Source of the DNA: SAR202 cluster bacterium
GTDB taxonomy: Bacteria; Chloroflexota; Dehalococcoidia; Lucifugimonadales; Lucifugimonadaceae
DNA: 64,000 bases
Direction: 5' to 3'
Assembly: GCA_009392285.1 (NCBI GenBank)
Contig: VFGU01000012.1
Coordinates: 164,045 to 228,044 of the forward strand
Shown: piece after piece, positions 17,123-59,519 of the stretch
How the letters are laid out: each line of letters opens with the position of its first letter
Numbering within the stretch: the first letter of the stretch is position 1
Notes under the pieces: model-generated
The model's database searches: none
Told to the model about the DNA's origin: nothing
What the model saw: only the letters and a program-made list of their open reading frames with translations
Made by a program: the position numbers and the translations under genes

Positions 17123-18298
17123 ATGAATAGTTTGAAAACAGATGTGATAGTCATAGGGTGTGGGCCAGGAGGCGCACAGACTGCAAGAAATTTATCTAGA
17201 AAAGGATTTTCTGTGGCATTGCTTGATTATAGGCTGAAGGTAGGAGATAAGTTATGCACAGGAATAGTTGGCACAGAGATGCTAAATCATTATCCAGAAG
17301 TTTCAAATTATGTTCTCAATAGATCTAGATCTGCAAATATTCATTGTGACAAAGATTATTTTTTAACAATTGAAAAAAATACAACTCAAGCTTTAATTAT
17401 TGATCGGGAGAAATTTATAAGGAATATTGCAATTGAGGCCGAAGATTCTGGAACTATACTGAGATTTCAACGATTGGTTAGTAATTTTGAGATATCTGAT
17501 GATGGTGTTGAAGTTTATGCAAAATATGATGGGGATATAGAGAAGTATAATGCCGATGTCTTGGTGATAGCATCAGGATATGGTTCAAAGTTAGCAAAAC
17601 GTGCTGGCTTTGGTTTAAGTGAGCATTATATATATGGATATCAGACTAAATTAAAGAATGTTGATGTTGATAAGGTAAATGTTTTTTCAGGAGACCCTCT
17701 TCCTAAAGGGCACTTTGGTTGGGTAGTTCCGACTTCTAAAAATAAAGGATATTGTGGAATATTAGGTAAAGAAAAATTGCAAAATAATGGCCTTGAATTT
17801 CTTTTAGATATGCAACAGAAATTTAATTTTGATATAGAAGGAAAAACAAAAGTTTGGGGCATACCTATAAGTCCAGTTGATAAAAAATCAAGAAATCGAT
17901 CATTATTAGTTGGTGATGTAGCAGGCCAAGTTAAACCCACAACAGGAGGAGGGATATATTTTGCTATGAGATCAGCAGATGTTGCAGCTGAGGTTATAAA
18001 TGATTCTTTATTAACTAGAGATTTTTCAGAAGAGCATTTTAATTCTTACTCCAAAAAATGGAATAATATATTTAAGAATGAATTGAGAATCGGATTTTTT
18101 GCTAGACAATTTTATGAAAGTCTAAATAGTGATGATATAAAGAATATTCTAAATCACATAGAAGAATCGGATCTTATCTCTAAAGATATCAATTTTGATT
18201 GGCATTCAAAAATTGTAATGATGGCATTTAAGACAAAAATTAAGTCTTATTTAAAAGGCAAAATGTTAAGTAAATTTAAAAGTTTAACTTTTAATTAA
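17123..18298 (+). CDS. FAD-dependent geranylgeranyl reductase family oxidoreductase
   Basis: DVIVIGCGPGGAQTA and VGDVAGQVKPTTGGGI. Confidence 0.8.
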   Translation: MNSLKTDVIVIGCGPGGAQTARNLSRKGFSVALLDYRLKVGDKLCTGIVGTEMLNHYPEVSNYVLNRSRSANIHCDKDYFLTIEKNTTQALIIDREKFIRNIAIEAEDSGTILRFQRLVSNFEISDDGVEVYAKYDGDIEKYNADVLVIASGYGSKLAKRAGFGLSEHYIYGYQTKLKNVDVDKVNVFSGDPLPKGHFGWVVPTSKNKGYCGILGKEKLQNNGLEFLLDMQQKFNFDIEGKTKVWGIPISPVDKKSRNRSLLVGDVAGQVKPTTGGGIYFAMRSADVAAEVINDSLLTRDFSEEHFNSYSKKWNNIFKNELRIGFFARQFYESLNSDDIKNILNHIEESDLISKDINFDWHSKIVMMAFKTKIKSYLKGKMLSKFKSLTFN

Positions 18299-20173
18299 AT
18301 TAATTATCTTTTGTGCAAGTTTACTTGATGATAGTCCGTGATAATCAATAACTTCTTCATTGGTGCCACTTTGTGGAATTTCATCTATCCCTATACTAGA
18401 TAGTTTTGTAGAGGAAATATCTAGGTTTTTAATTATATTAGCAATAAATTTTTCTCCAAAGCCCCCTTCTATATAATGATCATCAATTGTAATCACATGC
18501 CTGAAATCTTTTATTTGACCTTTTATCCAATTCAATGAAAATTTATTAAGCCAAGGAAAAGAAATTAATTTAGGATTTATATTATTTTCTACAAGAAGTT
18601 CTTTTGCTTTCCAAAGTTCTGCAAATATTAGAGGGCTATAGCAAAATATTGCTACTTCTTCTCCTTCAGAAATTACTGTACCCTCTCCCATTTTTATTAC
18701 ATTTTTATTTGGATATTTAAAAGGCAGATCAATAGGCAATGAGCACAATCTTATATATATATTATTGGTTGAATTTACAGCGTATTTTACTGCTAATGCT
18801 GTTTCTATTTCATTTAAAGGTTGTATCATTTCTAAATTAGGAATACCTGACATACTAGCTATATCTCTCACTGCTTGATGGGAGTGACCTGGTCCTCCCG
18901 GAAGTAAACCCGCTAGAGAACCTACATAAATTATTTTGGTTTTTTCTGTGGAATTATTATAGATCTGTTCATTTGGTCTACTAGTTAAAAAACTAGAAAA
19001 TGAATGAACAAATGGTATATAACCCTCTTTTGCAAACGATCCTGCCTGAGAAACCATGTCTTGTTCAGCAATTCCGCACTCAAAAAATCTATTTGGAAAT
19101 TTCTTTTCAAATTCAATTAATCCAGTGTCTAAAATTAAATCCCCATCTAATGCTATTATTCTTTCATTAGAAGATGCTTCATTAATGAGAGCTTTCGAGT
19201 AAGCATTAATAAGATTTTCGCTACCATTATTAACTTTCTTCTTATTTATAACTTCTTTATTTGAAAAATTAAAACTGTAATCTATGTTATTTGAATTGAT
19301 ATAATCATTTAATCTATCAACCAACTCTTTTATACCCTTGTTATAAGTTTCTTGATCTATTGATCCACTATGGAATTGATAAAATTCATCATCATTTAAC
19401 ATTGTTCCTTCCATAAATGAAACCCCACTTCCTTTCACAGTGTCTAAAATTATTACAGAGGGTTCATTTTCTTTAGAAATCCTATTAAATGCTTTTGAAA
19501 ATTCTTCAACATTATTACCGTCACAACGGACTGTATTAAGTCCAAATGATTTAAATTTACCTTCTAGATCTTTTAGGTCACTAGTGGTGCTAACTTTTCT
19601 GTCAGACTGAAATTTATTACTATCAACAAGGATTACTAATTCTTCCATTTTTTCTTGAACTAATCTGTTCATAGACTCCCATATTTGACCTTCTTGGAGT
19701 TCTCCATCGCCAGTCATAACGAAAACTTTACAATTTTTGTTTTTTAATCTGTTTGATTTTATTATTCCTTTTGCTTTAGAGATTCCCATTCCTAAAGATC
19801 CAGTGTTGGTAAAAATATTTGGAGTATTTATATCTGGATGACCAGGTAGGCCATCAATTTTTCTTAATTTATCAATTAATGAGAAGTTTAATTGCCCTAA
19901 AGATATCATTGCGCAATACATTGCTGGAGCGTCATGGCCTTTTGAAGAGAAGAAATATACATTTTCTTCCTTATTACTTATTTCTCCCATCACCCATGAC
20001 ATAACATCAATAGAACTAAACGAAGATCCAATATGACCTGACCCAGCATTACATATCATATAAAGTATATTTATTCTGCATAAATCAGAAAAAATTTTAT
20101 TTTTATGTAAAGGGTCTATTTCAATTGATAGCAAAGACTCAAAACTTTCTTTGTTTATATAAGATAGATTCAT
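18284..20173 (-). CDS. Fused (N+C section) transketolase-family TPP enzyme
   Basis: GHIGSSFS and GDGELQEGQIWES (PP domain), ECGIAEQDMVSQAGSFA (Pyr domain); 629 aa. It is the last gene of the neuB-led minus-strand string. Confidence 0.8.
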   Translation of the reverse strand: MNLSYINKESFESLLSIEIDPLHKNKIFSDLCRINILYMICNAGSGHIGSSFSSIDVMSWVMGEISNKEENVYFFSSKGHDAPAMYCAMISLGQLNFSLIDKLRKIDGLPGHPDINTPNIFTNTGSLGMGISKAKGIIKSNRLKNKNCKVFVMTGDGELQEGQIWESMNRLVQEKMEELVILVDSNKFQSDRKVSTTSDLKDLEGKFKSFGLNTVRCDGNNVEEFSKAFNRISKENEPSVIILDTVKGSGVSFMEGTMLNDDEFYQFHSGSIDQETYNKGIKELVDRLNDYINSNNIDYSFNFSNKEVINKKKVNNGSENLINAYSKALINEASSNERIIALDGDLILDTGLIEFEKKFPNRFFECGIAEQDMVSQAGSFAKEGYIPFVHSFSSFLTSRPNEQIYNNSTEKTKIIYVGSLAGLLPGGPGHSHQAVRDIASMSGIPNLEMIQPLNEIETALAVKYAVNSTNNIYIRLCSLPIDLPFKYPNKNVIKMGEGTVISEGEEVAIFCYSPLIFAELWKAKELLVENNINPKLISFPWLNKFSLNWIKGQIKDFRHVITIDDHYIEGGFGEKFIANIIKNLDISSTKLSSIGIDEIPQSGTNEEVIDYHGLSSSKLAQKIINLIKS

Positions 20174-20174
20174 A

Positions 20175-20933
20175 TTAATATGGCCTTTTATTTATTACAG
20201 GAAGTGTCGCTGTGCCGTTAGAGATTAGAATATTTGCTAATTCCCAATCTTCTTCAATATTTAAATCAAACCCTTCATCATTCATTGTAATAAAAGGGAT
20301 TACAGTATCTCCAGATATATTATTATATTTATTTACTGTTTCAGTGTATGCAATCTCTAAACTAGCATTTTGAACATATACCTCTGGCAGAGAGGGATAC
20401 TGCGAACTATGTAATGGCTGACCCAGAGGCCCTTTTTCTTCAAGGTTAACAAATGGAACCATATAATCATCTTCTATTTTCCACATTTTACATGGATGCT
20501 GAAGGCACTTTTCTACAGCTCTAAGAGAATCGCATTTTACAGAATTGAATAAATCAAAAGCCCTCAATATGGTTTCAGGTTTTCTGAATGGACTTGTTGG
20601 CCTCAAAATACTAAAGATTTTATAATCGGAACCATTATCTTTTAGATAATCTAAGGAATGTTTTACCCATTCTATATCTGGAGAGGTATCCTCTGCGTAT
20701 TCTTTAGGACGCATGAATGGAACATTAGCACCATAATATTCTGCTATCTCTTTTATATCTTCAGAGTCTGTAGAGACAATTATTTCATCAAATATATTAC
20801 TATTTGATGCAGATTGTATCGTATAAGCAATTAATGGGTGCTCTTTTAATTTATTTATATTTTTGTTTTTAACCCTTTTTGAGCCTGATCTTGCAGGTAT
20901 AAGTGCTATAGTTTTATTGCCCATATTTACCAA
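20175..20933 (-). CDS. neuA: Acylneuraminate (nonulosonate) cytidylyltransferase
   Basis: IALIPARSGSKRVKNKNI and LRPTSPFR. Confidence 0.88.
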   Translation of the reverse strand: MVNMGNKTIALIPARSGSKRVKNKNINKLKEHPLIAYTIQSASNSNIFDEIIVSTDSEDIKEIAEYYGANVPFMRPKEYAEDTSPDIEWVKHSLDYLKDNGSDYKIFSILRPTSPFRKPETILRAFDLFNSVKCDSLRAVEKCLQHPCKMWKIEDDYMVPFVNLEEKGPLGQPLHSSQYPSLPEVYVQNASLEIAYTETVNKYNNISGDTVIPFITMNDEGFDLNIEEDWELANILISNGTATLPVINKRPY

Positions 20934-21730
20934 GCTGTCCAGCCACCATCAATTATCATATTACTTCCAGTTATATATGATGATGCCGAACTAATTAGGA
21001 ATTGTATTGCCCCATTATATTCAGATTCATTTGCCATTCTTCCTAAAGGAACTTTTGAAGAGTAATTTTCTATAAATTCTTTATCTTGATTATCTAAAAC
21101 ACCTCCTAAAGTTAGAGTGTTTACTCTCACATTTTTATTGCCCCAATATGTGCTTAAGTACCTAGTCATATTAAGGATTCCAGATTTTGAAGCCGAATAA
21201 GATATAGGTTTGTTAAAGGTTTTTTCTCTATATTCATAAATTCTTTGGTCTGGAGAAATAATTCCATAATGAGATGAAATATTTATAATAGAACCAGAGT
21301 TATTTTTGGCCATCTCGGCACCAATTATCTGGCAACTAAGGAAGACACTTTTTAAGTTAGCCTCCATTATTTTATCCCAAGCCATCTCTGGATAATCTTC
21401 GAAAGGCCCATTTTGATCTTCTTCAGATCCTGGAGGTGAATCTAAGGCAGCATTATTAATTAAAGCATCAGGAACTCCAAGTTCATTAATCACTTGATTC
21501 AGTGACTCAGATATATCTTCCTTTTTTGTTAGATCAGTTTTAAAGAAAAAATAATTTTTATCTAGTAATTTATTAAGATTATCGGAGGGCGTATTTATAT
21601 CAAAATTGCAAATCACTGCACCATTATTTATAAGGTGATTTGTATAAATAGAGCCAAGTTTTCCGCTCCCACCTGTTAAAATAATGATCTTATCTTTTAT
21701 GTCAAAGATATTTTTTGATTTATTATTCAT
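20927..21730 (-). CDS. Short-chain dehydrogenase/reductase
   Basis: TGGSGKLGS Rossmann motif, NISS, and YSASK catalytic motif. Confidence 0.85.
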   Translation of the reverse strand: MNNKSKNIFDIKDKIIILTGGSGKLGSIYTNHLINNGAVICNFDINTPSDNLNKLLDKNYFFFKTDLTKKEDISESLNQVINELGVPDALINNAALDSPPGSEEDQNGPFEDYPEMAWDKIMEANLKSVFLSCQIIGAEMAKNNSGSIINISSHYGIISPDQRIYEYREKTFNKPISYSASKSGILNMTRYLSTYWGNKNVRVNTLTLGGVLDNQDKEFIENYSSKVPLGRMANESEYNGAIQFLISSASSYITGSNMIIDGGWTAW

Positions 21731-21740
21731 ATCTAGAAAG

Positions 21741-22262
21741 TCATTGATTTAATCTTTCGATTATATCGCAAACCTCTCTAACTGCACCATTCCCACCTTT
21801 GAGAACAGTTACATATTTAGCGAAATTAATTATTTCTGGGTGTGAATCCCTAACAACAATCGGTAGACCGCAAATCTTCAAGGCTCCAATATCATTTATA
21901 TCATTACCTACGAATGCTATATTTTTTAAATCAATTTTTTGATTTATAGAAATCTCTTTTAGTTTTTCTTCCTTGTGCGCTAAACCGTATTCACAATCTA
22001 TGTTTAATTTTTCTGCTCTTTTTTTTACACTTTCATTGGTTTCAGTGGAGAGTATTACCTTTTTTATTCCTAGGCTATCTAATTTACTTAACCCAAATCC
22101 ATCTAATTTGGATGATTTAACCATTTCTTCGCCTTTATCGTTTGAGTAGACGTAGTTATCTGTAAAAACCCCGTCAAAATCAAAGGCTACAAGTTTTATA
22201 TTTTTGAATAGATTTTTAGTTTTTTCTGGAATTTCATTTATGTGATCTAAATAATTTTCCAT
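21741..22262 (-). CDS. KdsC-type HAD phosphatase (ulosonate-phosphate phosphatase family)
   Basis: AFDFDGVFTDN motif I and VGNDINDIGAL motif; 173 aa, the KdsC / KDN-9-P phosphatase size class. Confidence 0.8.
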   Translation of the reverse strand: MENYLDHINEIPEKTKNLFKNIKLVAFDFDGVFTDNYVYSNDKGEEMVKSSKLDGFGLSKLDSLGIKKVILSTETNESVKKRAEKLNIDCEYGLAHKEEKLKEISINQKIDLKNIAFVGNDINDIGALKICGLPIVVRDSHPEIINFAKYVTVLKGGNGAVREVCDIIERLNQ

Positions 22263-22266
22263 TAGT

Positions 22267-23316
22267 TTATTCTATATCTTCAATCTGAAGAGTTTCATCC
22301 AGTTTGTAATCTTTCGTTAGTTTTTTACCTAGTACTTTTTCTAGCTCATTTGGTGAGATACCGTCTCCAGGAGACTTAAATGATAAATCATCTAAATTAA
22401 TAATAGAGCCTTTAGTTAAATCTTTTTTAGCAACTATTTTTTTGCCCATTTTAAATCTCGCAAGTTTTTCCTCTGATAACAATTTTTTTTCAGGATCACC
22501 TAATGAGAGCCTTACATTTTCTAATTCATCAATAAGTTCTTTTAATAGTTTAGGAGTTAACGAAAACTGATGGTCGGTTCCTTTTTGGGATCTATCTAGA
22601 GTAAAGTGTTTTTCTATAAACCTTGCACCTAACGCATAAGCTGCAACAGGTATTGAAATGCCTGAATCATGGCCTGAGTAACCTATTACAGTGCTAGGAA
22701 ATTCATCTCTATAGGTGCTGATTACATTAAGATTTATTGTTATTGGCTTTGCTGGATATATAGAAGTACATTGCATAATTACCACATTCGGGTTTATATC
22801 AATAACAAAATCAAAAGTTTTTTTAACTTCCCAAAAATCAGCAGCCCCAGTACTTATAATCATTGGTTTTTCAAATTTTGCTACCTTTTCTATTAACGGA
22901 AAAGTAGTTAGATCTCCAGATGCAATCTTGAAGCAATTAAGCCCCATTTCATTCAAGAAATCTGCACTTTTTAGATCAAATGGAGTTGCAAAGAATGTTA
23001 TTCCATTTTTTTCAGAGAATTTAAAGAGTTCTTCAAAATCATTATCACTTAACTCTAATTTGTCTCTATGCTCACCATATGTTGATGCAAAACTTTGAGG
23101 GCCAACATAAGATGAATTAAACATTTCTGAAGTAAATAATTCTTTATTATCCCTTTTTTGAAATTTTACCGCTGAAGCCCCACTTTCTTTTGCAGAAATT
23201 ATCATTTCTTTTGCATTATCTAAGTTGCCTTGATGATTATTGCCTATCTCTGCAATTACATAACATCTTGCTTCATCGTTAACCAATGTTTTATTAAAAA
23301 TGATTTCTCTAGCCAT
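22267..23316 (-). CDS. neuB: N-acylneuraminate/nonulosonate (-9-phosphate?) synthase with SAF domain
   Basis: IAEIGNNHQG, the NeuB TIM-barrel pattern, and a C-terminal SAF domain (KKIVAKKDLTKGSII). Confidence 0.9.
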   Translation of the reverse strand: MAREIIFNKTLVNDEARCYVIAEIGNNHQGNLDNAKEMIISAKESGASAVKFQKRDNKELFTSEMFNSSYVGPQSFASTYGEHRDKLELSDNDFEELFKFSEKNGITFFATPFDLKSADFLNEMGLNCFKIASGDLTTFPLIEKVAKFEKPMIISTGAADFWEVKKTFDFVIDINPNVVIMQCTSIYPAKPITINLNVISTYRDEFPSTVIGYSGHDSGISIPVAAYALGARFIEKHFTLDRSQKGTDHQFSLTPKLLKELIDELENVRLSLGDPEKKLLSEEKLARFKMGKKIVAKKDLTKGSIINLDDLSFKSPGDGISPNELEKVLGKKLTKDYKLDETLQIEDIE

Positions 23317-23366
23317 CTTCTCTACAATTTAATTAAAATACGATTTTACCTAATTAGATAGATATT

Positions 23367-24527
23367 TTGAAAATAGTTTACATTACAAACGCCAGATTAC
23401 CGACCGAAAAGGCTCATGGAGTCCAAATTTTGAAAATGATTAAAGCGTTTTCAGGTTTAGGAAACCAAACTGTATTGGTTCACCCAAAACGACATCAGAG
23501 AGAAATTTCCCATAAAACTGATGTATTTGATTTTTATCAAATGGAAAAGGTTTTTCAAGTTAAATCTTTAAAATTTATTGATCCTTATATTTTTCGCCCA
23601 TTTATGCCCAAATTTTTATATAGATTTTTCTCATTTATAATAGATTTTATCTGGGGCATTTTTTCGATTAATTATACTAAGAAATATAGCCCCGATTTCT
23701 TGATTTTTAGGGATAATACTCCATTTAGTTTATTTTTTTCATATTTTTCTGGAATTCCTAGTGTAATTGAGTTTCATGATATGCCCCCACTAATATCAAA
23801 AAGAATATTCAAATTTACTTTAAAACGAGCAAAAAAAATTAAGTGTTTTAGTGTTACAAAAAAATTATCTTTGGATTTAGAGAATTATTTTGGTCTTGAT
23901 GGAGGTTCAATTAAAGTTTTGCAGGATGCTGTAGACTTAGAAGATTATATAGGTAAACCTAAAATTAAGAGTTCTTCAGACATGCCAATTTTAACCTATT
24001 GCGGCTCTTTAAGTCATGAAAAAGGAGTAGATTTATTATTAGAAACTGCAACTAATTTAGAGGGTTTTCAAATAATAATAGTTGGAGGACTAGGCGCAGA
24101 GGTAAAAATTTATTCTGAAAAAGCCAAAAAAATGAATATTGATAATATTAGGTTTATTGGCCAAGTATTACCTTCAGAAGTCCCTAATTACCTCAATTCT
24201 TCAGATATTTTGTTATTACCTTCAAGTGCAAAATCAAAGAAATCTAGAGAATATACTTCTGCAATGAAACTTTTCGAATATCTGGCATCAGGGATCCCAA
24301 TTATTGCATCTAATATACCCTCAAATACTGAAATTTTAACTGGAGATAAAAATTGCATTTTATTTAATCCTGATGATTCGGACAGTCTAGTTCGAGAAAT
24401 AAAAAAACTTTGGCAAAATTATGACTTGAGAGAAAAGATATCTCATAATTCTATTGAATTATCTAAAGAGTTTACCTGGGAAAACAGATGTAAAGTAATA
24501 ATTGACGAGATAAAACAAATCAAATGA
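23367..24527 (+). CDS. Glycosyltransferase family 4 (GT-B)
   Basis: EKGVDLLLE and the EX7E-type region SAMKLFEYLASGIPIIAS. TTG start. Confidence 0.85.
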   Translation: MKIVYITNARLPTEKAHGVQILKMIKAFSGLGNQTVLVHPKRHQREISHKTDVFDFYQMEKVFQVKSLKFIDPYIFRPFMPKFLYRFFSFIIDFIWGIFSINYTKKYSPDFLIFRDNTPFSLFFSYFSGIPSVIEFHDMPPLISKRIFKFTLKRAKKIKCFSVTKKLSLDLENYFGLDGGSIKVLQDAVDLEDYIGKPKIKSSSDMPILTYCGSLSHEKGVDLLLETATNLEGFQIIIVGGLGAEVKIYSEKAKKMNIDNIRFIGQVLPSEVPNYLNSSDILLLPSSAKSKKSREYTSAMKLFEYLASGIPIIASNIPSNTEILTGDKNCILFNPDDSDSLVREIKKLWQNYDLREKISHNSIELSKEFTWENRCKVIIDEIKQIK

Positions 24528-25651
24528 ATTCATCTAATAAAAAACTTATAGCCATATTCGCACCTTTCCTAAATCCTGTAGGTGTAAAAAGAGCTACTTT
24601 TGGCCTTGCAAAAGAATTTTCTAAAAGTGGTTATGAGATAGATATGCTAAGCATACATAAAGAGTGGAATGATTTAGATTTATTAGAAAATATGAGATTA
24701 ATTAGGCTTTCCGACATTTTTAATAATTTTCCGACTACTGGTTATATTAAATTCAGATTAGTTTCTTTTCTTATCGCAGCCAGAACCATTTTTACTATTT
24801 CTAGTTATCTTAAGAAGAATAAACCAGGAATACTTTTTGTATCGATGATGCCAGTAGTCGCATGGCTTGGTTTGAAGATATCGGGGCAAAGATCATCTAC
24901 AAAGTTGGTAATTAGTGTCCAAGGTTTTCCAATAAATAATTTCTTTAGAAGATTTTTATGGAGAAGGGTTTTTCAGGATTCTCAAGATGTAATAGCTGAG
25001 TCAGAAAGTTTGAAAAGTAAATTAGAAAATATGACAGGGAATAGTAATCTAAATTATATTTACAATCCGCATTTTGAAAATCAGCATGATTTTGATGCAA
25101 ATTTTAATAATATAAATGAGGAAAATGATTTCATATTAGGCCTAGGACGACTTACTAAGCAAAAAAATTTTAAATTATTAATTCATGCATTTAGTAATTT
25201 GACTAATATCGATAATCTTGACTTATTAATTATTGGCGATGGAGAGGAAAAGGCTAATTTAGATAAGTTAATTGAAAAGTTAGATTTATCATCAAGGGTT
25301 AAATTGTTAGGTGAGATAAAAAATCCATTAGGATATATAAAGAAAGCACGAATATTGATTATTCCATCTTTGTGGGAAGGCCTTCCAAGAGTTGCTGTTG
25401 AGGCTCAAGCCCTCAGAACACCTATTATTTCTTCATGTCACGAAGGAGGGCTTGGTGAGATATTGATGAATGGTGATGCAGGCCAAATTACTGGAAAAAA
25501 TGATCCAATAGAAATGAAGAATGCTATTGAAAAATATATACAAGATGAGGATCTTGCTAAGAGTCATGCTGATTTTGCCTTTAAGAATTTGAATAGGTTT
25601 TCGCTTTCTTCTTCAGCAAAAAAATATCTAAATATTTTTTCGAGGTACTGA
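24524..25651 (+). CDS. Glycosyltransferase family 4 (GT-B)
   Basis: GRLTKQKNF and PSLWEGLPRVAVEAQALRTPIISS. Confidence 0.85.
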   Translation: MNSSNKKLIAIFAPFLNPVGVKRATFGLAKEFSKSGYEIDMLSIHKEWNDLDLLENMRLIRLSDIFNNFPTTGYIKFRLVSFLIAARTIFTISSYLKKNKPGILFVSMMPVVAWLGLKISGQRSSTKLVISVQGFPINNFFRRFLWRRVFQDSQDVIAESESLKSKLENMTGNSNLNYIYNPHFENQHDFDANFNNINEENDFILGLGRLTKQKNFKLLIHAFSNLTNIDNLDLLIIGDGEEKANLDKLIEKLDLSSRVKLLGEIKNPLGYIKKARILIIPSLWEGLPRVAVEAQALRTPIISSCHEGGLGEILMNGDAGQITGKNDPIEMKNAIEKYIQDEDLAKSHADFAFKNLNRFSLSSSAKKYLNIFSRY

Positions 25652-25652
25652 T

Positions 25653-26570
25653 ATGTACAAAGTTGATGATATTACAGTATTAATAGCAACAAAAGACAGG
25701 GTTGATGAAATTGAAAGAGCAATTCAAAGTTCGATAAACCAATCACTTAAAGTTAATATAGTGGTTCTCGATGATTCTTCTGAAATAAATATAAAAGAAA
25801 AACTTGAAGATAAATTTAAAGATAAGCCTATTAAATGGATGAGATCTAGTGCGCCATCTGGAGTAGCTGGGGCAAGAAATAAGCTTGTTGAAGGGTCTGA
25901 GGGGTCTATAATGGTTTTCTTAGATGATGACGCTTATTTTACTGATAAATATTCTCTAGAAAATATTATAAAAAAATTTTCCACTTCTGATGAAATTGCA
26001 GGAATGGCTTTCAAAATAATATTAAGACAAAATGATGATGGCCTTCAAATTCCTTTTAATAGGTTAAAAAGATTTTTAAATAAAAATATTCATAATGAAG
26101 AGTCTGATGTGTCTTATTATGTCGGCGCAGGGCATGTGTTATTAAGAGAAACTTTTGAAAAAGTTGGGGGCTATGACTCTGAACTTTTTTACGGACTTGA
26201 AGAACTGGATATTAGTTCCGAGATAATAAAAGAAGATAAAAAAATAATTTATTTTCCTCAAGTTCAAGTAATACACGAACCCAAGAAATCGGTTGTAGAT
26301 AAGAAGAATAAATTAAAGGATGAAGCTTATTACAGCATAAGAAATAGAATTTGGGTTTCTTATAAACATCTTCCAGCAATGTATCTAGTAGTACACCTAA
26401 CAGTATGGGGTTCATTTTATTTTTTGAAGTCATTGCTTAAATTCCAATTAGGGAAATTTTTTATCGCTACTTTTGAAGGTTTTAAAAAGTTGAATTCCAA
26501 AGATAGGAAGCCATTTAATTCTAGTGCCCTAAAGTATCTTAAGAGAAACAATGGGAGGCTTTGGTATTAA
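25653..26570 (+). CDS. Glycosyltransferase family 2 (GT-A)
   Basis: VLIATKDR, VVLDDSS and FLDDDAYF (DXD). Confidence 0.85.
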   Translation: MYKVDDITVLIATKDRVDEIERAIQSSINQSLKVNIVVLDDSSEINIKEKLEDKFKDKPIKWMRSSAPSGVAGARNKLVEGSEGSIMVFLDDDAYFTDKYSLENIIKKFSTSDEIAGMAFKIILRQNDDGLQIPFNRLKRFLNKNIHNEESDVSYYVGAGHVLLRETFEKVGGYDSELFYGLEELDISSEIIKEDKKIIYFPQVQVIHEPKKSVVDKKNKLKDEAYYSIRNRIWVSYKHLPAMYLVVHLTVWGSFYFLKSLLKFQLGKFFIATFEGFKKLNSKDRKPFNSSALKYLKRNNGRLWY

Positions 26571-27628
26571 ATATGGATGATTATTTAAAGGTTGGAATTT
26601 CAGTAATAATACCTACACGAAATGAAGAAGATTACATTGAAGAATGTATAAATTCTCTTTTAAATTGCCGGAGTATTCAGGCATCTAATTTTATTGTTGA
26701 TTTTATAATTGTAGATGGAATGAGCACAGATAAAACAGTAGATATTATTAAAGAAAAATTTGGTCATTTGAATTTAAAAATTTTAAATAACCCTAATCTT
26801 TATCAGTCATATGCCATGAATATTGGAATTGAAAATAGCAATAATATAAACGAAACTTCATTGATTATTAGAGCCGATGCTCATTCGAAATATCCTCAAG
26901 ATTATATTTTTCAATGTTGGCAAGCCTCCTTTAATACTTGGGGAGGGAATGCGGGATCTGTTCAAAAGGCAGTAGGAACTAATTTCTTTACAAGGATTGT
27001 TGCTGATGTAATGAATTCAGGGTATGCGATGGGGGGTGTTAGTTATAGAAATATAAAATATGATCCATTTAATCCAACAACTCAATATATTGATTCGGAT
27101 ACAGCATATCTTGGCAGCTGGAAAAGATCAGATTTAATTGAGTTAGGAGGTTTTAATGAAGAGTTTCAAATTAATGAAGATTATGAATTAAATATTAGAT
27201 TAAGGAATAATGGAAGGAAGGTAATTGTAGTTTCAGATTTAATTGTTGAATACTTTGTTAGAAGTTCTTTATTCGGTTTGATAAAACAATTTTTTAGATA
27301 TGGTTTATGGAAAACTAAGACATTGTCTTTACATCCTGACTCTTTAAAATTAAGACAGTTAGCTCCTGTTTCATTTGTATTATTTTTATTTGTATTAGGA
27401 ATTGGAAATTTAATTTTTGCGGGTGACTTATTATTATTTATTAATGCATCATCAATATTGATAGGGACTCTTTGGTTGATTATGATTTTATTAATTTGGA
27501 AAAATTCTTCAAATTTATTCAGCATCTTTTTGATTCCTTTTATTGTGCTATCAATGCATATTTCTTGGGGTCTAGGATTCTTGTATGGTCTTATAAGATG
27601 GGCTAGAGGAGGATGGAATAAATCTTGA
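26561..27628 (+). CDS. Glycosyltransferase family 2, ExoA-like, with C-terminal TM helices
   Basis: ISVIIPTRNEE, IIVDGMSTD, RADAHSKYPQDY, and about three C-terminal TM segments. Confidence 0.8.
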   Translation: MVLNMDDYLKVGISVIIPTRNEEDYIEECINSLLNCRSIQASNFIVDFIIVDGMSTDKTVDIIKEKFGHLNLKILNNPNLYQSYAMNIGIENSNNINETSLIIRADAHSKYPQDYIFQCWQASFNTWGGNAGSVQKAVGTNFFTRIVADVMNSGYAMGGVSYRNIKYDPFNPTTQYIDSDTAYLGSWKRSDLIELGGFNEEFQINEDYELNIRLRNNGRKVIVVSDLIVEYFVRSSLFGLIKQFFRYGLWKTKTLSLHPDSLKLRQLAPVSFVLFLFVLGIGNLIFAGDLLLFINASSILIGTLWLIMILLIWKNSSNLFSIFLIPFIVLSMHISWGLGFLYGLIRWARGGWNKS

Positions 27629-28239
27629 GATCTAGAACTTATAAATTAAAAAGACCACTTGATATATTAATGATAATAGGTGGATTACTGCTTCCTTTAT
27701 TATGGCCTCTGTGGTTAATAGTAATATTCATTATCCCCTTGTTAATTTGGATAGAAGATAGGGGCCCAATTTTTTATTCTCAAGATAGAATTGGTAAAAA
27801 TAAAAAAGTTTTTAAAGTTATTAAGTTTAGGACTATGATACCTGATGCAGAGAAGGTTTCTGGTGCAGTATGGTCCACAAAAGATGATCCTAGAATTACT
27901 AAAATTGGACATATTCTCAGAAGGACAGCACTAGATGAGATTCCTCAATTACTCAATATATTAAAAGGTGAGATGAGTTTTGTTGGGCCTAGAGCTGAAC
28001 GACCAGAACTTCATGAAAAGTTTGCAAAAGAGATTCCGGGTTTTGATAAAAGATTAGATGTTACTCCTGGGTTATCAGGATTAGCACAGATAAATGGCTC
28101 ATATGATTTAGACCCTAAGGATAAGTTAGTATTTGATATTGATTATTCACAAAAGATGAGTTTATTTTTTGATATAAAAATAATAATAATTTCTGTATTT
28201 AATAGTATTGCTGCTAAATGGGATCAGCCAGATAAATGA
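27625..28239 (+). CDS. Small (PglC-like) polyprenyl-phosphate phosphoglycosyl transferase
   Basis: Bacterial sugar transferase motifs RPLD, DEIPQLLNILKGEMSFVGPRAERPE; 204 aa with one N-terminal membrane segment. Confidence 0.88.
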   Translation: MRSRTYKLKRPLDILMIIGGLLLPLLWPLWLIVIFIIPLLIWIEDRGPIFYSQDRIGKNKKVFKVIKFRTMIPDAEKVSGAVWSTKDDPRITKIGHILRRTALDEIPQLLNILKGEMSFVGPRAERPELHEKFAKEIPGFDKRLDVTPGLSGLAQINGSYDLDPKDKLVFDIDYSQKMSLFFDIKIIIISVFNSIAAKWDQPDK

Positions 28240-28241
28240 TA

Positions 28242-31046
28242 TTATTCTGCCCTTACTTCTAATATCTTAACTTCAAAATAAATAGTTGCATTAGGGGGGA
28301 TTAAGTTTTTGACTCCTACAGATCCATATGCCATTTCAGGAGGTATAACTATCCTAGCTATACTACCTTCTCCTAGGCCTAAAATCCCACTTTCAAAACC
28401 TTCTACTGCTAGACCCATTCCAGCCTTAAAAGTTAAAGTATTTACATCTTCAAAATATGAACTATCGAATATGCATCCATTTGAAAGCCATCCGGTATAA
28501 TCAAGTTTTACAACATTTCCAGGTGATATTGTTAAGCTGCCTTTATTTAACTCTTGCTTAACGCCAACAATGACTCCATTATCTAGTTCATTATTGTATA
28601 AAACGTTACTATCTTCGAATTTAGGTTTATCGCTCGGATATTCTTCATTCCTACAAATGATGTCCCATTCAGGTACTATTTCCCCTTTTATTATTCCGAG
28701 ACTTTCATCCCAAAAATTTCTCCAGTTTGGTGGTATAACTTTTTTCCATGTTTGAATTAAAGGTTCTGCATTAATAGGATCATTCATTAGTAGGGCAATC
28801 CTTATTTTAAGCTCAAGAGTTTGGATTGAATTAGGGGATAATTCCTCTAATTTATTAAGAATATTTATAGCAACATCTAAATTATTGGCATCATATGCTG
28901 CTAAGCTAGTATAAACGCTTGCGGCTCCAAAATGAATGTTGAAATGATCAGGCTCAACTTCTATCCCTTTTCTGTATTCCTCAGAAACTAGCCCAACTAA
29001 AGAAGTATATGCTTCAGCAAATTTATCCGCTTCACTCGCCATCCCAAGCATTTTCTCCATATCCCTCCTTACTATGTACATAAGCTCTTGCCTTCCATAG
29101 TTAGATAACGGTTCAAATTTGTTTATATTTTCTTGAGCCTCAATCAATGAAGTTGGAGATCCAAGAGGAGGGGTGACCTTCGCAGCCTGAAATGGGATAG
29201 CAACATAAGACCTAATGACTAATATGGTTACTATGGGGATAATTATTGCTGCAACAATAACCATAGAGTCTTTTACAAATGCCTGTTCTTTGGTTTCTTT
29301 AGTTACATTAATTTCTAATTCATCCTTTTTACCAAAACCTTGCTCTGTTCTTGTCAGAAATGCAATTAATAGCATTATTTGTAGAAATATTGAAGATACT
29401 GCGAAATTAAACATTGAAAAAGTTACATAAGAAATAAAGAAGCACCCTAAAAGCATCCAAAAAATATTTTCTGAATCGCGCCTTAAGGCCCTTTTTGTGA
29501 TTAAGATTCCAATATAAATCCAGAATGATATAAGTGCTATAAAACCAATGATTCCTGAAGTTGCCATTATATGAAGAACTCTGTTGTGAGCCCTATCAAA
29601 ATGAGGTTTGTCATCTGCCATATTTTCATTATTTAAATTTATGTATTTATAATGAAGAACAGGAAAATTTTCAGGCCCAATACCAAATATTGGATTATCG
29701 ACAAACCCTTTCCATGCTGCACTCCAAGCAAAACCTCTTTCTCCAATATCAAATCCAGACCTGAATGGATAAGATATTCCTGATCCAAATAATGAAATAA
29801 ATTTCATGGTAGAAGTGCACTCTCGGAAGGAATCTCTTTCGGTCAGCCAAAAATAAGTTAATAATTGATCTGAACAAATCCTTGATTTCATTTCAGGTTC
29901 AGATATTTTTCCAGTCTTTACCATATGTTCTAGCAATTGCTCCATAGAAAGTCCTAACTTTCCAGATGATTTCTCTATTTCATTATATTCTTGAACAACT
30001 GAAAGTCCGGGGATTATAGAGGCTATTTCAGACCTTTCTTTATCAGCATTAAGCCCTTTCCAATTGGGACTTTCTTCAAAAACTTCTATAGGGAAATACT
30101 TAGAAAGAACCTCGATTCTTAAATCTTCTCTTTGAGATTCAATTGTGGTTGTTATGAAAAAGAAGGTCGGAATTAAAATGATTATCAGAGTTACCGGAGC
30201 CAATGTAAATTTTCTAATTTTTTTATAAACGATTGACAGCATAATAGATATTAATAGAATTGAAGCCGCTATACCGATTAATGATGCCCTAGATCCTGAA
30301 CTTAAAATCGTCCATATAGAAATAAGAGAAGCAATTCCAGCAATTACCACATAAGTTTTAGATGATTTTTTTAGAGAAGCATATGTATTAAAAATCGATA
30401 ATCGATAATTTATTTTGAATTCTCTATAAATTAAAGCTATTGAACTAAAAGTCACCATTGATAAATATGTTGCTAAATAGGATGGATTTCCAATTGTAGA
30501 CTCTACCCTTTCTCCTCCTGTATAAGATCCCTCAGGATTAACAACTAGAGGAAAGATGTCCAAGCCTCCTACTAAAGGTATTACTAAATCTAGAGACTCA
30601 AAAAAACCTAAAGTAGCAACGATTAAGCCGACAAAAGTATTTACCTTCCATAAATTTATCCAAGATAATTTAGTCTTTAGAACTGAAAAAGCTATCAATA
30701 TGAAAATGAGCCAATGAAAATATTCAACAACTCCTTCCATTCTCTCCCAATTACCCCAAAAACTATTTTGGGGGCTAGAACCAAATAATCCGGCTAATGC
30801 TTGCGATAGCACAAAGAGTGAAAAAAGTAATATTAGGGTACTTTTTTCAGGTAAATATTTATTGTTAACAGTTATAAGGATTAGCCATAAGCATGATATT
30901 GAATAAATTACCCCTCTAAACCATAACGACTTCCCCACTACAAAAGGGAAAACAGTTTCAGGAGAAACTACTAGAGGCAGGAATAGTATTAACGAGAGTC
31001 CTAAGAAGATTAATTTAGGAAAGTATGTATTTATAAATATTCTCAT
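28242..31046 (-). CDS. Wzy_C (O-antigen ligase / O-oligosaccharyltransferase family) polytopic membrane protein fused to a helical-repeat region and a C-terminal FKBP-type peptidyl-prolyl isomerase
   Basis: More than 10 TM helices, a large loop ending in HFDRAHNRVLHIMATSGIIG (Wzy_C signature), and a further TM near residue 600. A roughly 200-aa helical region follows. The FKBP domain reads GNVVKLDYTGWLSNGCIFDSSY..FKAGMGLAVEGFESGILGLGEGSIARIVIPPEMAYG..IPPNATIYFEVKILEV (about 28245-28575). Confidence 0.8.
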   Translation of the reverse strand: MRIFINTYFPKLIFLGLSLILFLPLVVSPETVFPFVVGKSLWFRGVIYSISCLWLILITVNNKYLPEKSTLILLFSLFVLSQALAGLFGSSPQNSFWGNWERMEGVVEYFHWLIFILIAFSVLKTKLSWINLWKVNTFVGLIVATLGFFESLDLVIPLVGGLDIFPLVVNPEGSYTGGERVESTIGNPSYLATYLSMVTFSSIALIYREFKINYRLSIFNTYASLKKSSKTYVVIAGIASLISIWTILSSGSRASLIGIAASILLISIMLSIVYKKIRKFTLAPVTLIIILIPTFFFITTTIESQREDLRIEVLSKYFPIEVFEESPNWKGLNADKERSEIASIIPGLSVVQEYNEIEKSSGKLGLSMEQLLEHMVKTGKISEPEMKSRICSDQLLTYFWLTERDSFRECTSTMKFISLFGSGISYPFRSGFDIGERGFAWSAAWKGFVDNPIFGIGPENFPVLHYKYINLNNENMADDKPHFDRAHNRVLHIMATSGIIGFIALISFWIYIGILITKRALRRDSENIFWMLLGCFFISYVTFSMFNFAVSSIFLQIMLLIAFLTRTEQGFGKKDELEINVTKETKEQAFVKDSMVIVAAIIIPIVTILVIRSYVAIPFQAAKVTPPLGSPTSLIEAQENINKFEPLSNYGRQELMYIVRRDMEKMLGMASEADKFAEAYTSLVGLVSEEYRKGIEVEPDHFNIHFGAASVYTSLAAYDANNLDVAINILNKLEELSPNSIQTLELKIRIALLMNDPINAEPLIQTWKKVIPPNWRNFWDESLGIIKGEIVPEWDIICRNEEYPSDKPKFEDSNVLYNNELDNGVIVGVKQELNKGSLTISPGNVVKLDYTGWLSNGCIFDSSYFEDVNTLTFKAGMGLAVEGFESGILGLGEGSIARIVIPPEMAYGSVGVKNLIPPNATIYFEVKILEVRAE

Positions 31047-31051
31047 TGATT

Positions 31052-31975
31052 TTAAGAGTCCTTTAGATGACTAATTGTTTTTTTGAGTCCTTCTTGTAGG
31101 CTAGTTTTAGGTTTCCAATTCGATATTCCTAAAGCTTTAGAATTATCTAATTCAATCCCAAATATATCCCCTTCCCTAGAATTACTCATAACTGGTTCAT
31201 CTTTGTAATCAACTATTTCTTTTAGGCTATTGAATATATCAATAGTTTTTGTTTTTTGCCCAGAGCATAGATTATAAGTTCCAGTTATATTCCCTTCTGT
31301 AATTTTTTCAATGAAATCCACAACATCATCAATGTATATATAATCTCTGTATTCATTTCCTGTGCCAAAGATAGTCACTGGTTCATTTTCTAGCATTTTT
31401 TTTCCAAATATTGATACTACCCCTGCTTCTCCGTAAGGATTTTGGCCAGGACCAAATACATTACTTGGCCTTATTACAGTAGAAGGCAGATTAAATTTGT
31501 CTGAATAATAGGTTAAATATTTTTCAAAACTAGATTTTGACATACCGTAGGGACTTTGAGGGTCAACCGTGTCATCTTCATTGAATTTTCTACCAACTTT
31601 CTCTCCATATATTGCTCCACCGGTTGAAAAGAATACAAATTGAGTTAATTTTAGCTCCAAGGCAGATTTTAATATATTTAAGGAGCCTCCAACGTTCACA
31701 TCATTGTCTAGAACTGGGTCTTTAGAAGATATAGCCACACTTGCCTGTGCTGCAAGATGAATAATTTTGTCAGGCTTGATTTCTTGAAAATAATCTTTAA
31801 TTTTGTCCGACCTAATATCTATTTTTTTGTACTTAATATCTAAATTTGTTTTAGGTTCTTCTATATCTAGTACATATATTTCATTATTTTTGTGTCCAGA
31901 TAACTTAGATGTTAAAGCAGATCCAATAAAGCCAGATCCACCTGTAATTAGTATTTTATTTCTTATATTTGTCAC
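31052..31975 (-). CDS. NAD-dependent nucleotide-sugar epimerase (GalE-like)
   Basis: GTG start, ITGGSGFIGS, and YGMSK. Confidence 0.85.
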   Translation of the reverse strand: MTNIRNKILITGGSGFIGSALTSKLSGHKNNEIYVLDIEEPKTNLDIKYKKIDIRSDKIKDYFQEIKPDKIIHLAAQASVAISSKDPVLDNDVNVGGSLNILKSALELKLTQFVFFSTGGAIYGEKVGRKFNEDDTVDPQSPYGMSKSSFEKYLTYYSDKFNLPSTVIRPSNVFGPGQNPYGEAGVVSIFGKKMLENEPVTIFGTGNEYRDYIYIDDVVDFIEKITEGNITGTYNLCSGQKTKTIDIFNSLKEIVDYKDEPVMSNSREGDIFGIELDNSKALGISNWKPKTSLQEGLKKTISHLKDS

Positions 31976-31993
31976 TTTTTCGATTTTCTTGTC

Positions 31994-32041
31994 TATTGAT
32001 GCATATTGATGGTTAATATGAAAATGATTTAAAGTATCAAT
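31994..32041. promoter_or_regulatory. Candidate operator upstream of argJ: TATTGATG x2 direct plus one inverted copy
   Basis: TATTGATG occurs at 31994-32001 and 32004-32011, a 10-bp register. The inverted copy TATCAATA is at 32034-32041. The first repeat junction reads TGCATATTGATG, loosely like an ARG box. Confidence 0.3.
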
Positions 32042-32069
32042 AAATTAAAGAATAAACTAACTATACTAA

Positions 32070-44128: not shown

Positions 44129-44205
44129 TGGTACCCCGTACGAGATTCGAACTCGTGATCTCCACCTTGAAAGGGTGGCGTGTTGGGCCGCTACACTAAC
44201 GGGGC
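44129..44205 (-). tRNA. tRNA-Glu (UUC), CCA encoded
   Basis: Reverse complement: GCCCCGT-TA-GTGT-AGCGGCCCA-ACAC-G-CCACC-CTTTCAA-GGTGG-AGATC-ACGAG-TTCGAAT-CTCGT-ACGGGGT-A-CCA. The cloverleaf folds by hand (G1:U72 wobble), the anticodon loop is CT-TTC-AA, and the T-loop is TTCGAAT. Confidence 0.9.
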
Positions 44206-59445: not shown

Positions 59446-59480
59446 TTAATATTTAGAACATTTCGTTTCTTCATTTTAAA

Positions 59481-59511
59481 AGAGAGAGAATTAACGTTCT
59501 CTCTCTTTTTT
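59481..59511 (+). terminator. Rho-independent terminator/attenuator between the binding-protein and permease genes
   Basis: AGAGAGAGAA (59481-59490), loop TTAACG, TTCTCTCTCT (59497-59506), then TTTTT. Confidence 0.8.
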
Positions 59512-59519
59512 ATATATAC

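Follow-up and report, generated by a model that had tools for sequence, protein, structure and literature searches.

Gene content and organization of the block

The stretch of DNA analyzed here, referred to as the window, comprises 64,000 nucleotides (nt) from a SAR202 cluster bacterium (GCA_009392285.1, contig VFGU01000012.1, positions 164,045 to 228,044 of the forward strand) and contains a 13.7-kb block of glycan-related genes at positions 18284 to 31975 (all positions are window coordinates). The closest relatives of ArgJ and of the other window proteins belong to metagenome-assembled genomes (MAGs) and single-amplified genomes of marine Chloroflexota, Dehalococcoidia, and SAR202. Genome-streamlined SAR202 have genomes of 1.1-2 Mb overall, with a GC content of 29-33% in subgroups Ib, Ic, and VI (PMC11994032); the GC content of the window, 31%, matches these organisms, and the host is therefore taken to be a genome-streamlined SAR202. 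Members of SAR202 are described as monoderms in which genes for peptidoglycan and lipopolysaccharide (LPS) biosynthesis are not present and whose wall is S-layer-like (PMC10444878, PMC11994032), and their sialic acid genes have previously been tied to presumed S-layer glycoproteins (PMC5395668). One archaellin from Chloroflexota probably carries O-glycans, for which no machinery has been described (PMC12488501). In the window, Pfam was run on all 58 non-overlapping open reading frames (ORFs) of at least 90 amino acids (aa), and no lpx or kds genes were found among them.

The block consists of twelve densely packed genes in three transcription units. A minus-strand unit (23316 to 18284) encodes a NeuB-family synthase with an SAF domain, a KdsC-like HAD phosphatase, a short-chain dehydrogenase/reductase (SDR), a CTP_transf_3 cytidylyltransferase, and a 629-aa fused transketolase-like enzyme, and is followed by a plus-strand unit (23367 to 28239) of four glycosyltransferases (GT4a, GT4b, GT2a, and GT2b) and a 204-aa Bac_transf phosphoglycosyl transferase (PGT), in which neighboring genes overlap by 4-10 nt except for a 1-nt gap between GT4b and GT2a. 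A second minus-strand unit (31975 to 28242) holds the gene for a GalE-like epimerase and, 5 bp downstream on the same strand, the gene for a 934-aa protein carrying both Wzy_C and FKBP_C domains. The features are as follows:

17123-18298, plus strand: GGR-family FAD reductase, the left border gene (TIGR02032, 187 bits vs a cut-off of 159; same position in loci L081-L085)
18284-20173, minus strand: fused ThDP enzyme resembling transketolase, at the end of the cassette (Transketolase_N, Transket_pyr, and Transketolase_C; NCBIfam equivalog 358.8 vs 488)
20175-20933, minus strand: CMP-ulosonic-acid synthetase-like cytidylyltransferase (CTP_transf_3, 82.8 bits; nearest NCBIfam model PseF, 145 vs 206)
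20927-21730, minus strand: SDR of the cassette (adh_short_C2, 124 bits; PRK09186-/PtmA-like, sub-threshold)
21741-22262, minus strand: KdsC/Kdn-9-P-phosphatase-like HAD phosphatase (TIGR01670, 103.6 with a cut-off of 106.95; KDN-9-P phosphatase model, 98.8 with a cut-off of 180)
22267-23316, minus strand: NeuB-family ulosonic-acid synthase with SAF domain (NeuB, 261.6 bits; TIGR03569 [NeuB_NnaB], 322.7 vs 399.65)
23317-23366, no strand: 50-bp intergenic stretch from which the cassette operon and the glycosyltransferase operon diverge, from ORF coordinates; a presumed shared promoter region
23367-24527, plus strand: GT4 glycosyltransferase a, GT-B fold (Glycos_transf_1, 92.5 bits)
24524-25651, plus strand: GT4 glycosyltransferase b (Glycos_transf_1, 120 bits; best named relatives PglJ and PglH, far sub-threshold)
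25653-26570, plus strand: GT2 glycosyltransferase a, soluble (Glycos_transf_2, 70 bits)
26561-27628, plus strand: GT2 glycosyltransferase b, with about four C-terminal transmembrane (TM) helices (Glycos_transf_2, Glyco_tranf_2_3, and Glyco_trans_2_3)
27625-28239, plus strand: small monotopic PGT, PglC-like (Bac_transf, 195.6 bits, aa 9-193 of 204)
28242-31046, minus strand: 934-aa WaaL/PglL-family ligase with 13 TM helices and a fused TPR-like and FKBP part (Wzy_C, 50.4 bits; FKBP_C, 71.7 bits)
31052-31975, minus strand: GalE-like extended SDR, a nucleoside diphosphate-sugar epimerase or dehydratase (Epimerase, 170.5 bits; GalE and RmlB models sub-threshold)
31976-32069, no strand: 94-bp intergenic stretch from which the epimerase-ligase pair and argJ diverge, from ORF coordinates; right boundary of the insertion

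A preliminary description of this DNA, made from the letters and their translations, had given the same list of genes for 18284-31975 and had placed them between a GGR-family gene and argJ. The Pfam and NCBIfam assignments agree with it on both counts, with TIGR02032 above its cut-off on the left and argJ, by Pfam, on the right. The GGR-family gene and the transketolase gene are convergent, with an overlap of 15 nt. Enzymes of the GGR family saturate polyprenyl chains, including dolichol carriers in archaea, and by analogy a role for this reductase in tailoring the lipid carrier is conceivable. Promoter and terminator scans gave results at or below the shuffle expectation in this AT-rich DNA and were not informative.

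A WaaL-fold ligase with TPR-like and FKBP domains predicted to be extracytoplasmic

The 934-aa protein belongs to the Wzy_C/WaaL superfamily in its domain, its fold, and its motif. Its Wzy_C domain (PF04932) scores 50.4 bits vs a gathering cut-off of 31.7, and in an alignment of 40 homologs, R253, R437, D484, H487, N488, and G498 are invariant and G501 is nearly so. The arrangement H487-N488-x9-G498-x2-G501 fits the H-N-x9-G-x2-G signature; H-[NSQ]-x9-G-x2-G together with conserved Arg/Arg/His is characteristic of WaaL/PglL-type ligases. Confident AlphaFold (AF2) models were obtained for the full-length protein (pLDDT 84.4, pTM 0.76) and for aa 1-630 (pLDDT 87.6, pTM 0.88). When the membrane domain was compared with the PDB by Foldseek, the sole significant match was WaaL (7TPG; E=4.5e-5, prob 1.0, TMt 0.57); this match came from aa 1-630 modeled alone, and the full-length model matched FKBP structures only, as did a PDB sequence search with the fusion protein.

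Thirteen TM helices are predicted in an N-in/C-out arrangement, with a K+R density of 0.27 in the short inside loops vs 0.03 in the outside loops. On the basis of this positive-inside bias, a 185-aa catalytic loop (aa 304-488), the TPR-like repeat, and the FKBP domain are all predicted to lie outside the cell. The repeat is formed in the AF2 model by about nine stacked helices (aa 634-797), and the FKBP domain occupies approximately aa 817-932. In all 23 of the fusion homologs compared, the FKBP pocket residues Y26, F36, D37, Y82, I91, and F99 (FKBP12 numbering) are invariant, while W59 is replaced by F, I, or M. Both the TPR-like and the FKBP regions are conserved like the TM core, which argues that they are under selection.

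About 70 full-length relatives (915-946 aa, at least 46% identity) were found, all of them with Wzy_C and FKBP_C, and precomputed annotation places the Wzy_C domain on all of about 75 full-length homologs. Next in similarity come Wzy_C+TPR proteins with a length of about 730 aa, some of which carry a Patescibacteria annotation. Among 1.84 billion (1.84e9) representative proteins, the whole aa 611-934 module did not occur outside the ligase family, and the other long FKBP proteins checked among the top matches were not Wzy_C proteins. The closest relative of the ligase that has no FKBP domain adjoins pglF/E/D/C-like bacillosamine genes. A Wzy_C domain with a C-terminal TPR is also found in PglL and in WsfB, the S-layer O-oligosaccharyltransferase (O-OTase) of a Gram-positive bacterium (PMC2943079). 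A literature search for a Wzy_C-FKBP fusion returned no description. Two of the 934-936-aa fusions (P0021 and P0046) are publicly annotated just as "FKBP-type peptidyl-prolyl cis-trans isomerase," so that annotation based on names would miss the ligase. A 52%-identical copy of the fusion is assigned to Flavobacteriales and a partial one to Rickettsiales, and the contigs of the two were probably mis-binned.

Within the clade, a sister subclade with 54% ArgJ identity (L107 6346-8853, minus strand; L011, L012, and L108) has an 835-aa Wzy_C protein at the ligase position. This protein has no FKBP or TPR Pfam matches and shares about 23% identity with the window ligase, in the N-terminal third. Judged by these sequences, the FKBP fusion was either gained or lost within the clade. 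The 934-aa protein is a candidate O-OTase.

The ulosonic-acid cassette

Pfam places both a NeuB-family synthase and a CMP-nonulosonic acid (NulO) synthetase, the pair shared with the canonical NulO pathways (Neu5Ac, Pse, and Leg), in the five-gene cassette, and the PDB relatives of the NeuB protein are PseI and NeuB/SiaC at about 1e-45. All five cassette proteins fall under the NCBIfam equivalog cut-offs. None of the NeuC, PseB/C/H/G, or LegB/C/H/G steps was found in the block by Pfam or NCBIfam, nor was a set of aminotransferase, N-acetyltransferase, 2-epimerase, and 4,6-dehydratase. The KdsC-like phosphatase and the transketolase instead suggest sugar-phosphate intermediates and a Kdn-like route, and the HAD phosphatase, as assigned from its sequence, would imply a phosphorylated ulosonate intermediate.

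The transketolase-like gene could be viewed as a stray housekeeping gene wrongly counted in the block. This was ruled out because homologs with about 50% identity end a matching cassette in two unrelated genomes, one of them a gammaproteobacterial MAG, with the recurring order NeuB-HAD-SDR-Aldedh-(hypothetical)-CTP_transf_3-TK (TK, transketolase; L170 2411-9962; L171 3396-9953). In the gammaproteobacterial MAG the cassette adjoins a PglK/MsbA-like ABC exporter and KpsC/S-like genes, and in the other genome it lies near a small PGT. A cyanobacterial homolog of the transketolase stands alone, outside such a cassette. Literature searches for a transketolase-type ulosonic-acid pathway or cassette returned no description, and, as far as gene content can indicate, the cassette may encode a sugar that has not been described.

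Glycosyltransferases and the putative initiating enzyme

With a Bac_transf domain filling most of its 204 aa, the PGT belongs to the small monotopic PglC-like class, whose members have about 200 aa and one N-terminal membrane-associated helix, and its sequence contains the Asp-Glu dyad motif LDEIPQ. Within the block the PGT gene shows the strongest conservation (77-99% identity) and is, together with NeuB, the slowest to evolve; the ligase, the epimerase, and GT4a/b are the fastest (for GT4a, 80% or 53% identity where argJ has 92% or 73%). A permissive Pfam scan (E<=1) of the TM tail of GT2b found no GtrA or other flippase domain. In Tannerella, the NulO transferase is GT-B/TagB-like (PMC5420450, PMC6120980), and by analogy GT4a or GT4b is a candidate for this role in the block.

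One glycosyltransferase gene differs sharply between two sister MAGs. The loci L002 and L003 share 93.5-94.5% DNA identity over 21 kb, but their GT2b alleles (L002 4513-5462; L003 4424-5463) diverge with sharp boundaries, to 68% protein identity and mostly unalignable DNA, and the divergent allele is not near any other sampled lineage. At the sequence level, this is a single-gene glycosyltransferase swap within an otherwise rigid block.

Absence of flippase, exporter, and chain-length genes

At the sensitivity of Pfam, no Wzx/Polysacc_synt, MurJ, ABC-2/Wzm-Wzt, PglK-like ABC exporter, Wzz, Wza, or LCP protein was detected among the 58 ORFs, as the preliminary description had claimed for flippases, chain-length regulators, and exporters. 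The lone ABC system in the window is an importer (SBP, BPD_transp_1, and ABC_tran; 58300-61808), and the multi-TM proteins outside the block are its BPD_transp_1 permease, an MFS transporter, TatC, a DUF454 protein, and Lit. The syntenic loci of relatives likewise contained no Wzx, Wzz/PCP, Wza, or LCP genes. By the gene content of the window and of these loci, the block is neither a Wzx/Wzy-dependent nor an ABC-dependent polysaccharide locus.

On a Patescibacteria-like contig (L168 10001-14393; also L169), two tandem Wzy_C proteins of about 730 aa lie beside a 447-aa PGT, with several PMT_2 (GT-C) genes, a GT2, and methyltransferases in the neighborhood and no Wzx within 10 kb. Wzy_C loci without a flippase may thus occur widely in lineages that are monoderm or have a reduced cell wall.

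Conservation, base composition, and origin of the insertion

To compare the region among relatives, window proteins were aligned by tblastn to 80 genome and 80 metagenome loci anchored on argJ and to five loci anchored on the GGR gene, each locus comprising ±10 kb around the query match. Loci with 54-97% ArgJ identity were classified as in-clade, and those with ArgJ below 53% as outgroup. As far as the contigs reach, the block genes are in the same order in 26/26 in-clade loci with at least 1.5 kb of sequence upstream of argJ, 12 of which extend to NeuB. The left half (GGR-TK-CMP-SDR-HAD-NeuB-GT4a...) is collinear up to the contig ends in all five GGR-anchored loci, which come from close relatives, so that left-half synteny rests on fewer genomes than that of the right half. 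Block proteins are also conserved like the flanks, with mean identities (block/flanks, per relative) of 85.8/86.8, 83.8/86.6, 94.8/91.4, 64.5/63.9, and 58.9/50.5.

By contrast, the block was absent from all 103 loci of outgroup Dehalococcoidia. In 49 of these, trxB lies within 700 bp of argJ, and the right flank is often the same (argJ-argB-argD-argG-argH-rpe-...). In-clade collinearity and the adjacency of trxB and argJ in the outgroup together indicate an old, clade-specific insertion at the trxB/argJ junction that is now part of the core genome; from the sequences compared, it was inserted in the clade ancestor and has been vertically inherited since. The GGR gene also lies between trxB and argJ and may have been co-inserted, in which case the inserted segment probably spans 17123-31975.

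The preliminary description had suggested a flexible island, in part from hand counts of about 22-33% GC in the glycosyltransferase block against 42-45% in lysC, trxB, and argD. Computed over full lengths, this contrast disappears: bulk GC is 0.3116 in the block vs 0.3141 in the rest of the window, and the GC contents of lysC, trxB, and argD are 0.330, 0.369, and 0.355. Single 60-nt lines in the flanking genes reach 0.45-0.53, which accounts for the hand-counted values, and the apparent low-GC signal was thus an artifact of counting few lines. Neither GC3 (0.212 in the block vs 0.207 elsewhere; Mann-Whitney p=0.86) nor codon-usage distance (p=0.25) sets the block apart, and its tetranucleotide distance from the window average ranks 42nd among 51 equal-sized windows. 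No tRNA gene is located at the block borders (the sole tRNA of the window is at 44129-44205), no Pfam matches to integrases or transposases were found, and the only border repeats are short, AT-rich chance repeats.

An island of glycosylation genes that is hypervariable, exchanged horizontally, and different from strain to strain would be consistent with several observations, namely that the block is an insertion relative to the outgroup, that the same junction carries other glycan genes in a few lineages (L014 and L031), that GT2b has a divergent allele in two sister MAGs, and that many assemblies break in or at the edge of the block. The identical gene order in every in-clade locus refutes this idea at the level of gene content, and neither the flank-like conservation nor the unremarkable composition and borders fit it. 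Conservation and synteny of the block among relatives is also the result that the preliminary description had set as a refutation of its flexible island.

The trxB/argJ junction appears as a recurrent site of glycan genes across Dehalococcoidia (L014, L031, L018, L019, and L020). In L014 (4421-9327), it contains a GT1-like gene, a GT2 with TM helices, a 305-aa PGT, and a GT4, and in L031 (6676-9383), a GGR homolog (38% identical, beside trxB) and a 511-aa Wzz/ParA-type (BY-kinase-like) protein. The junction PGTs are 57-60% identical to the window PGT, which is above the ArgJ identity of 48%, and a small ancestral glycan cluster at this site is therefore possible. Contig ends are also frequent in this region: among the MAG and metagenome contigs, L081 ends in NeuB and L084 in the transketolase gene, L001 and L009 start in GT4a, L005, L006, and L010 start at the epimerase gene, and L004 starts at the PGT gene. 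A 73-kb metagenome contig (L086), whose ArgJ is 100% identical to that of the window, starts 150 bp upstream of argJ. These breaks could be attributed to strain microdiversity in the ligase, epimerase, or GT4 genes or to a coverage effect; they were not counted as evidence of hypervariability at the population level, as an alternative cassette was found in 0/26 loci.

A proposed glycosylation pathway and its alternatives

Of the possible functions, the one that we favor, at somewhat better than an even chance, is that the block encodes the clade-conserved machinery by which genome-streamlined marine SAR202 O-glycosylate their surface proteins en bloc. The acceptors would be the S-layer protein and possibly archaellin or other exported proteins. 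The pathway could proceed as follows: (i) the PglC-like PGT, whose family assignment is given above, would place a sugar-1-phosphate, probably supplied by the adjacent GalE-like enzyme, on polyprenyl phosphate at the cytoplasmic face; (ii) the two GT4 and two GT2 enzymes would extend the chain to a short, fixed oligosaccharide, which the preliminary description took, from the gene set, to have roughly five sugars and a CMP-activated cap; (iii) the five-gene cassette would make a CMP-activated ulosonic acid via sugar-phosphate intermediates, which one of the block glycosyltransferases would add; (iv) the lipid-linked glycan would be flipped by a protein encoded elsewhere or by a non-canonical one; and (v) the 13-TM WaaL-fold enzyme would move the glycan to Ser/Thr of exported proteins, with the extracytoplasmic TPR-like and FKBP domains binding or isomerizing the unfolded, proline-containing acceptor.

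Several lines of evidence point in this direction. The resemblance to protein O-glycosylation loci rather than to capsule or O-antigen loci, already suggested in the preliminary description, is strengthened by the presence of one fixed set of glycosyltransferases and one WaaL/PglL-family enzyme without polymer-export or chain-length genes, by the protein-binding domains predicted on the outer side of the ligase, and by a host group reported to have an S-layer and no LPS or peptidoglycan (PMC11994032, PMC10444878). The bacillosamine-type neighbors of the nearest FKBP-less relative of the ligase point the same way. A WaaL-fold ligase in a host reported to be without lipid A or peptidoglycan makes proteins the most plausible acceptor. 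Moreover, a block that is fixed and conserved like its housekeeping flanks in 26/26 loci fits general glycosylation better than a strain-variable capsule.

There are also points that weigh against this assignment. Wzy_C-family sequence and fold do not separate O-OTases from lipid ligases or from some Wzy polymerases, and the ligase has no PglL_A or Wzy_C_2 domain (Pfam E<=0.001; catalytic loop at E<=1). These domains mark the PglL and PglS classes only and are not found in TfpO/TfpM (PMC12645811); their absence thus means that the ligase is not assignable to the PglL or PglS class. The TPR is weak by sequence (TPR_11 E=0.0014, 18.7 bits vs a cut-off of 26.8), and the FKBP-less 835-aa ortholog in the subclade with 54% ArgJ identity indicates that FKBP is not essential to the pathway. 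In addition, none of the four block glycosyltransferases is a recognizable sialyltransferase or NulO transferase, the locus lacks a flippase, and the absence of LPS and peptidoglycan is taken from the literature on SAR202 in general.

The strongest alternative, although we consider it unlikely, is that the acceptor in the monoderm envelope is not a protein but, for example, a membrane glycolipid or lipoglycan anchor, to which the WaaL-fold enzyme would attach the oligosaccharide to form a lipo-oligosaccharide-like coat, with the FKBP/TPR part acting as a moonlighting envelope chaperone or docking module. The lone solved structural relative, WaaL 7TPG, is itself a lipid-acceptor ligase, and the lack of PglL-specific accessory domains, the FKBP-less ortholog of the sister subclade, which shows that the core pathway runs without FKBP, and the GGR-family gene and polyprenyl synthase in the neighborhood would all be compatible with such a coat. 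However, SAR202 are reportedly without lipid A/LPS genes (PMC11994032), the block contains no genes for the biosynthesis of a lipid anchor, and the extracytoplasmic TPR and FKBP parts are protein-binding modules conserved like the catalytic core. The combination of Wzy_C and TPR is, furthermore, the architecture of a known S-layer O-OTase (PMC2943079).

A less probable alternative is that the Wzy_C protein is a Wzy-type polymerase, that the block makes an exopolysaccharide or capsule of repeat units, and that the genes for Wzx and the chain-length regulator lie elsewhere in the genome. Some polymerases also bear Wzy_C domains, a PGT with four glycosyltransferases is a typical repeat-unit set, the outgroup locus L031 has its Wzz/BY-kinase-like gene at the same trxB/argJ junction, and the flippase has to be elsewhere under any scenario. 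On the other hand, the genes for Wzx, Wzz/PCP, Wza, and LCP are missing from both the 64 kb and the syntenic loci of relatives, the ligase-type H-N-x9-G-x2-G motif is invariant, and we know of no polymerases with TPR or FKBP domains. Capsule and O-antigen loci are also usually strain-variable, while the block is fixed across a deep clade. As for the flexible, strain-variable island considered above, the synteny and composition results leave it scarcely any credibility.

If O-glycosylation of surface proteins is accepted, the separate features of the block can be joined in a more specific and decidedly speculative model, which we think improbable as a whole. In this model, the 934-aa protein would be a self-contained "glycosylate-while-folding" WaaL-fold O-OTase, in which the TPR-like and FKBP domains capture Sec-exported, unfolded S-layer protein or archaellin and present proline-containing sites to the catalytic loop, and the glycan would be capped by an uncharacterized ulosonic acid, the product of a sugar-phosphate route that depends on transketolase. 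Because the hosts are reported to be without peptidoglycan and LPS, and presumably without the usual lipid-flipping proteins, flipping would be carried out by a non-canonical component, e.g., the TM domain of GT2b.

Comparison with known glycosylation systems

The S-layer glycosylation (slg) loci of Paenibacillus alvei (WsfP, glycosyltransferases, and WsfB) and Geobacillus stearothermophilus (WsaP, glycosyltransferases, and WsaB) resemble the SAR202 block in belonging to S-layer-bearing monoderms and in having an initiating PGT, several glycosyltransferases, a nearby galE-type gene, and one Wzy_C-family transferase, which in the case of WsfB has a C-terminal TPR behind Wzy_C (PMC2943079). However, the slg loci encode their own export (Wzm/Wzt in Geobacillus) and make long polymeric glycans, whereas the SAR202 block is without an exporter, has an ulosonic-acid cassette and an extra FKBP domain on the transferase, and occurs in peptidoglycan-less hosts.

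In the Neisseria pgl system, a small PGT starts a short, fixed, lipid-linked oligosaccharide, which is transferred en bloc to many proteins (general glycosylation) by PglL, a Wzy_C/WaaL-family enzyme with the His/Arg motif (PMC12645811), and en bloc transfer would likewise apply to SAR202. The pgl system differs in its dedicated flippase PglF, in the PglL_A and Wzy_C_2 domains of PglL, in having no FKBP and no NulO, and in its diderm host with a periplasm. The O-glycosylation system of Tannerella forsythia puts an oligosaccharide capped by a CMP-activated nonulosonic acid (Pse/Leg) on S-layer proteins, as is proposed here for SAR202, and uses a GT-B/TagB-like NulO transferase (PMC5420450, PMC6120980), a fold class shared by GT4a and GT4b. 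Tannerella, however, has canonical Pse/Leg nucleotide-sugar pathways and Wzx, in contrast to the NeuB, KdsC-like phosphatase, SDR, and transketolase of the SAR202 block, which is without Wzx.

The WaaL of Cupriavidus metallidurans (7TPG) resembles the SAR202 ligase in its Wzy_C domain, Arg/Arg/His signature, and fold, but it has 12 TM helices, no C-terminal domains, and a lipid A-core acceptor, whereas the 13th TM helix of the SAR202 ligase is predicted to place the TPR-like and FKBP parts outside. For the cassette, the nearest comparison is with Kdn and Neu5Ac-9-phosphate pathways, e.g., that for Kdn in Bacteroides thetaiotaomicron, which consist of a synthase, a HAD phosphatase, and a CMP synthetase. 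The SAR202 block similarly encodes a NeuB-family synthase, a KdsC-family phosphatase, and a CTP_transf_3 cytidylyltransferase together, although all three proteins are below the equivalog cut-offs and the cassette adds an SDR and a transketolase-like enzyme, in a gene arrangement found again in unrelated phyla.

Other genes in the window

Two genes outside the block stood out. Of all genes in the window, a homolog of Lit (lipoprotein intramolecular transacylase, PF07314; 9645-10313, plus strand; about five TM helices) is the poorest in GC (0.227). Lit is mainly familiar from Firmicutes, and the homolog hints at lyso-form lipoproteins in a wall-less Chloroflexota lineage. A DAK2/FakA-like gene (38543-40126, plus strand) is 64% identical in the closest MAG (SP248, L001), in which most flank genes exceed 90%, and is the most divergent gene of the region, beyond any block gene.

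Implications for the SAR202 cell surface

The notion that SAR202 produce sialic-acid-like sugars for glycoproteins of the S-layer is not in itself new (PMC5395668, PMC11994032), and the genome-streamlined members, which form the majority of SAR202 in the sunlit ocean, have a surface chemistry that depends on such glycoproteins (PMC11994032). New here are the joining of ligase, TPR, and FKBP in one architecture, the cassette of the transketolase type, the conserved lack of an exporter in the locus, and the abundant, largely uncultured, wall-less ocean host; literature searches for SAR202 glycosylation loci returned no description of the block features. Among candidates for the machinery behind SAR202 S-layer glycoproteins, the block is the first concrete one, and its intact presence across a deep clade with genomes of only 1.1-2 Mb speaks for an essential rather than a decorative role. 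The block also offers a clean system for asking which component flips a lipid-linked glycan where Wzx, MurJ, and ABC exporters are unavailable. Should the "glycosylate-while-folding" model hold, the ligase would be a bacterial counterpart of the coupling between oligosaccharyltransferase and translocon in eukaryotes.

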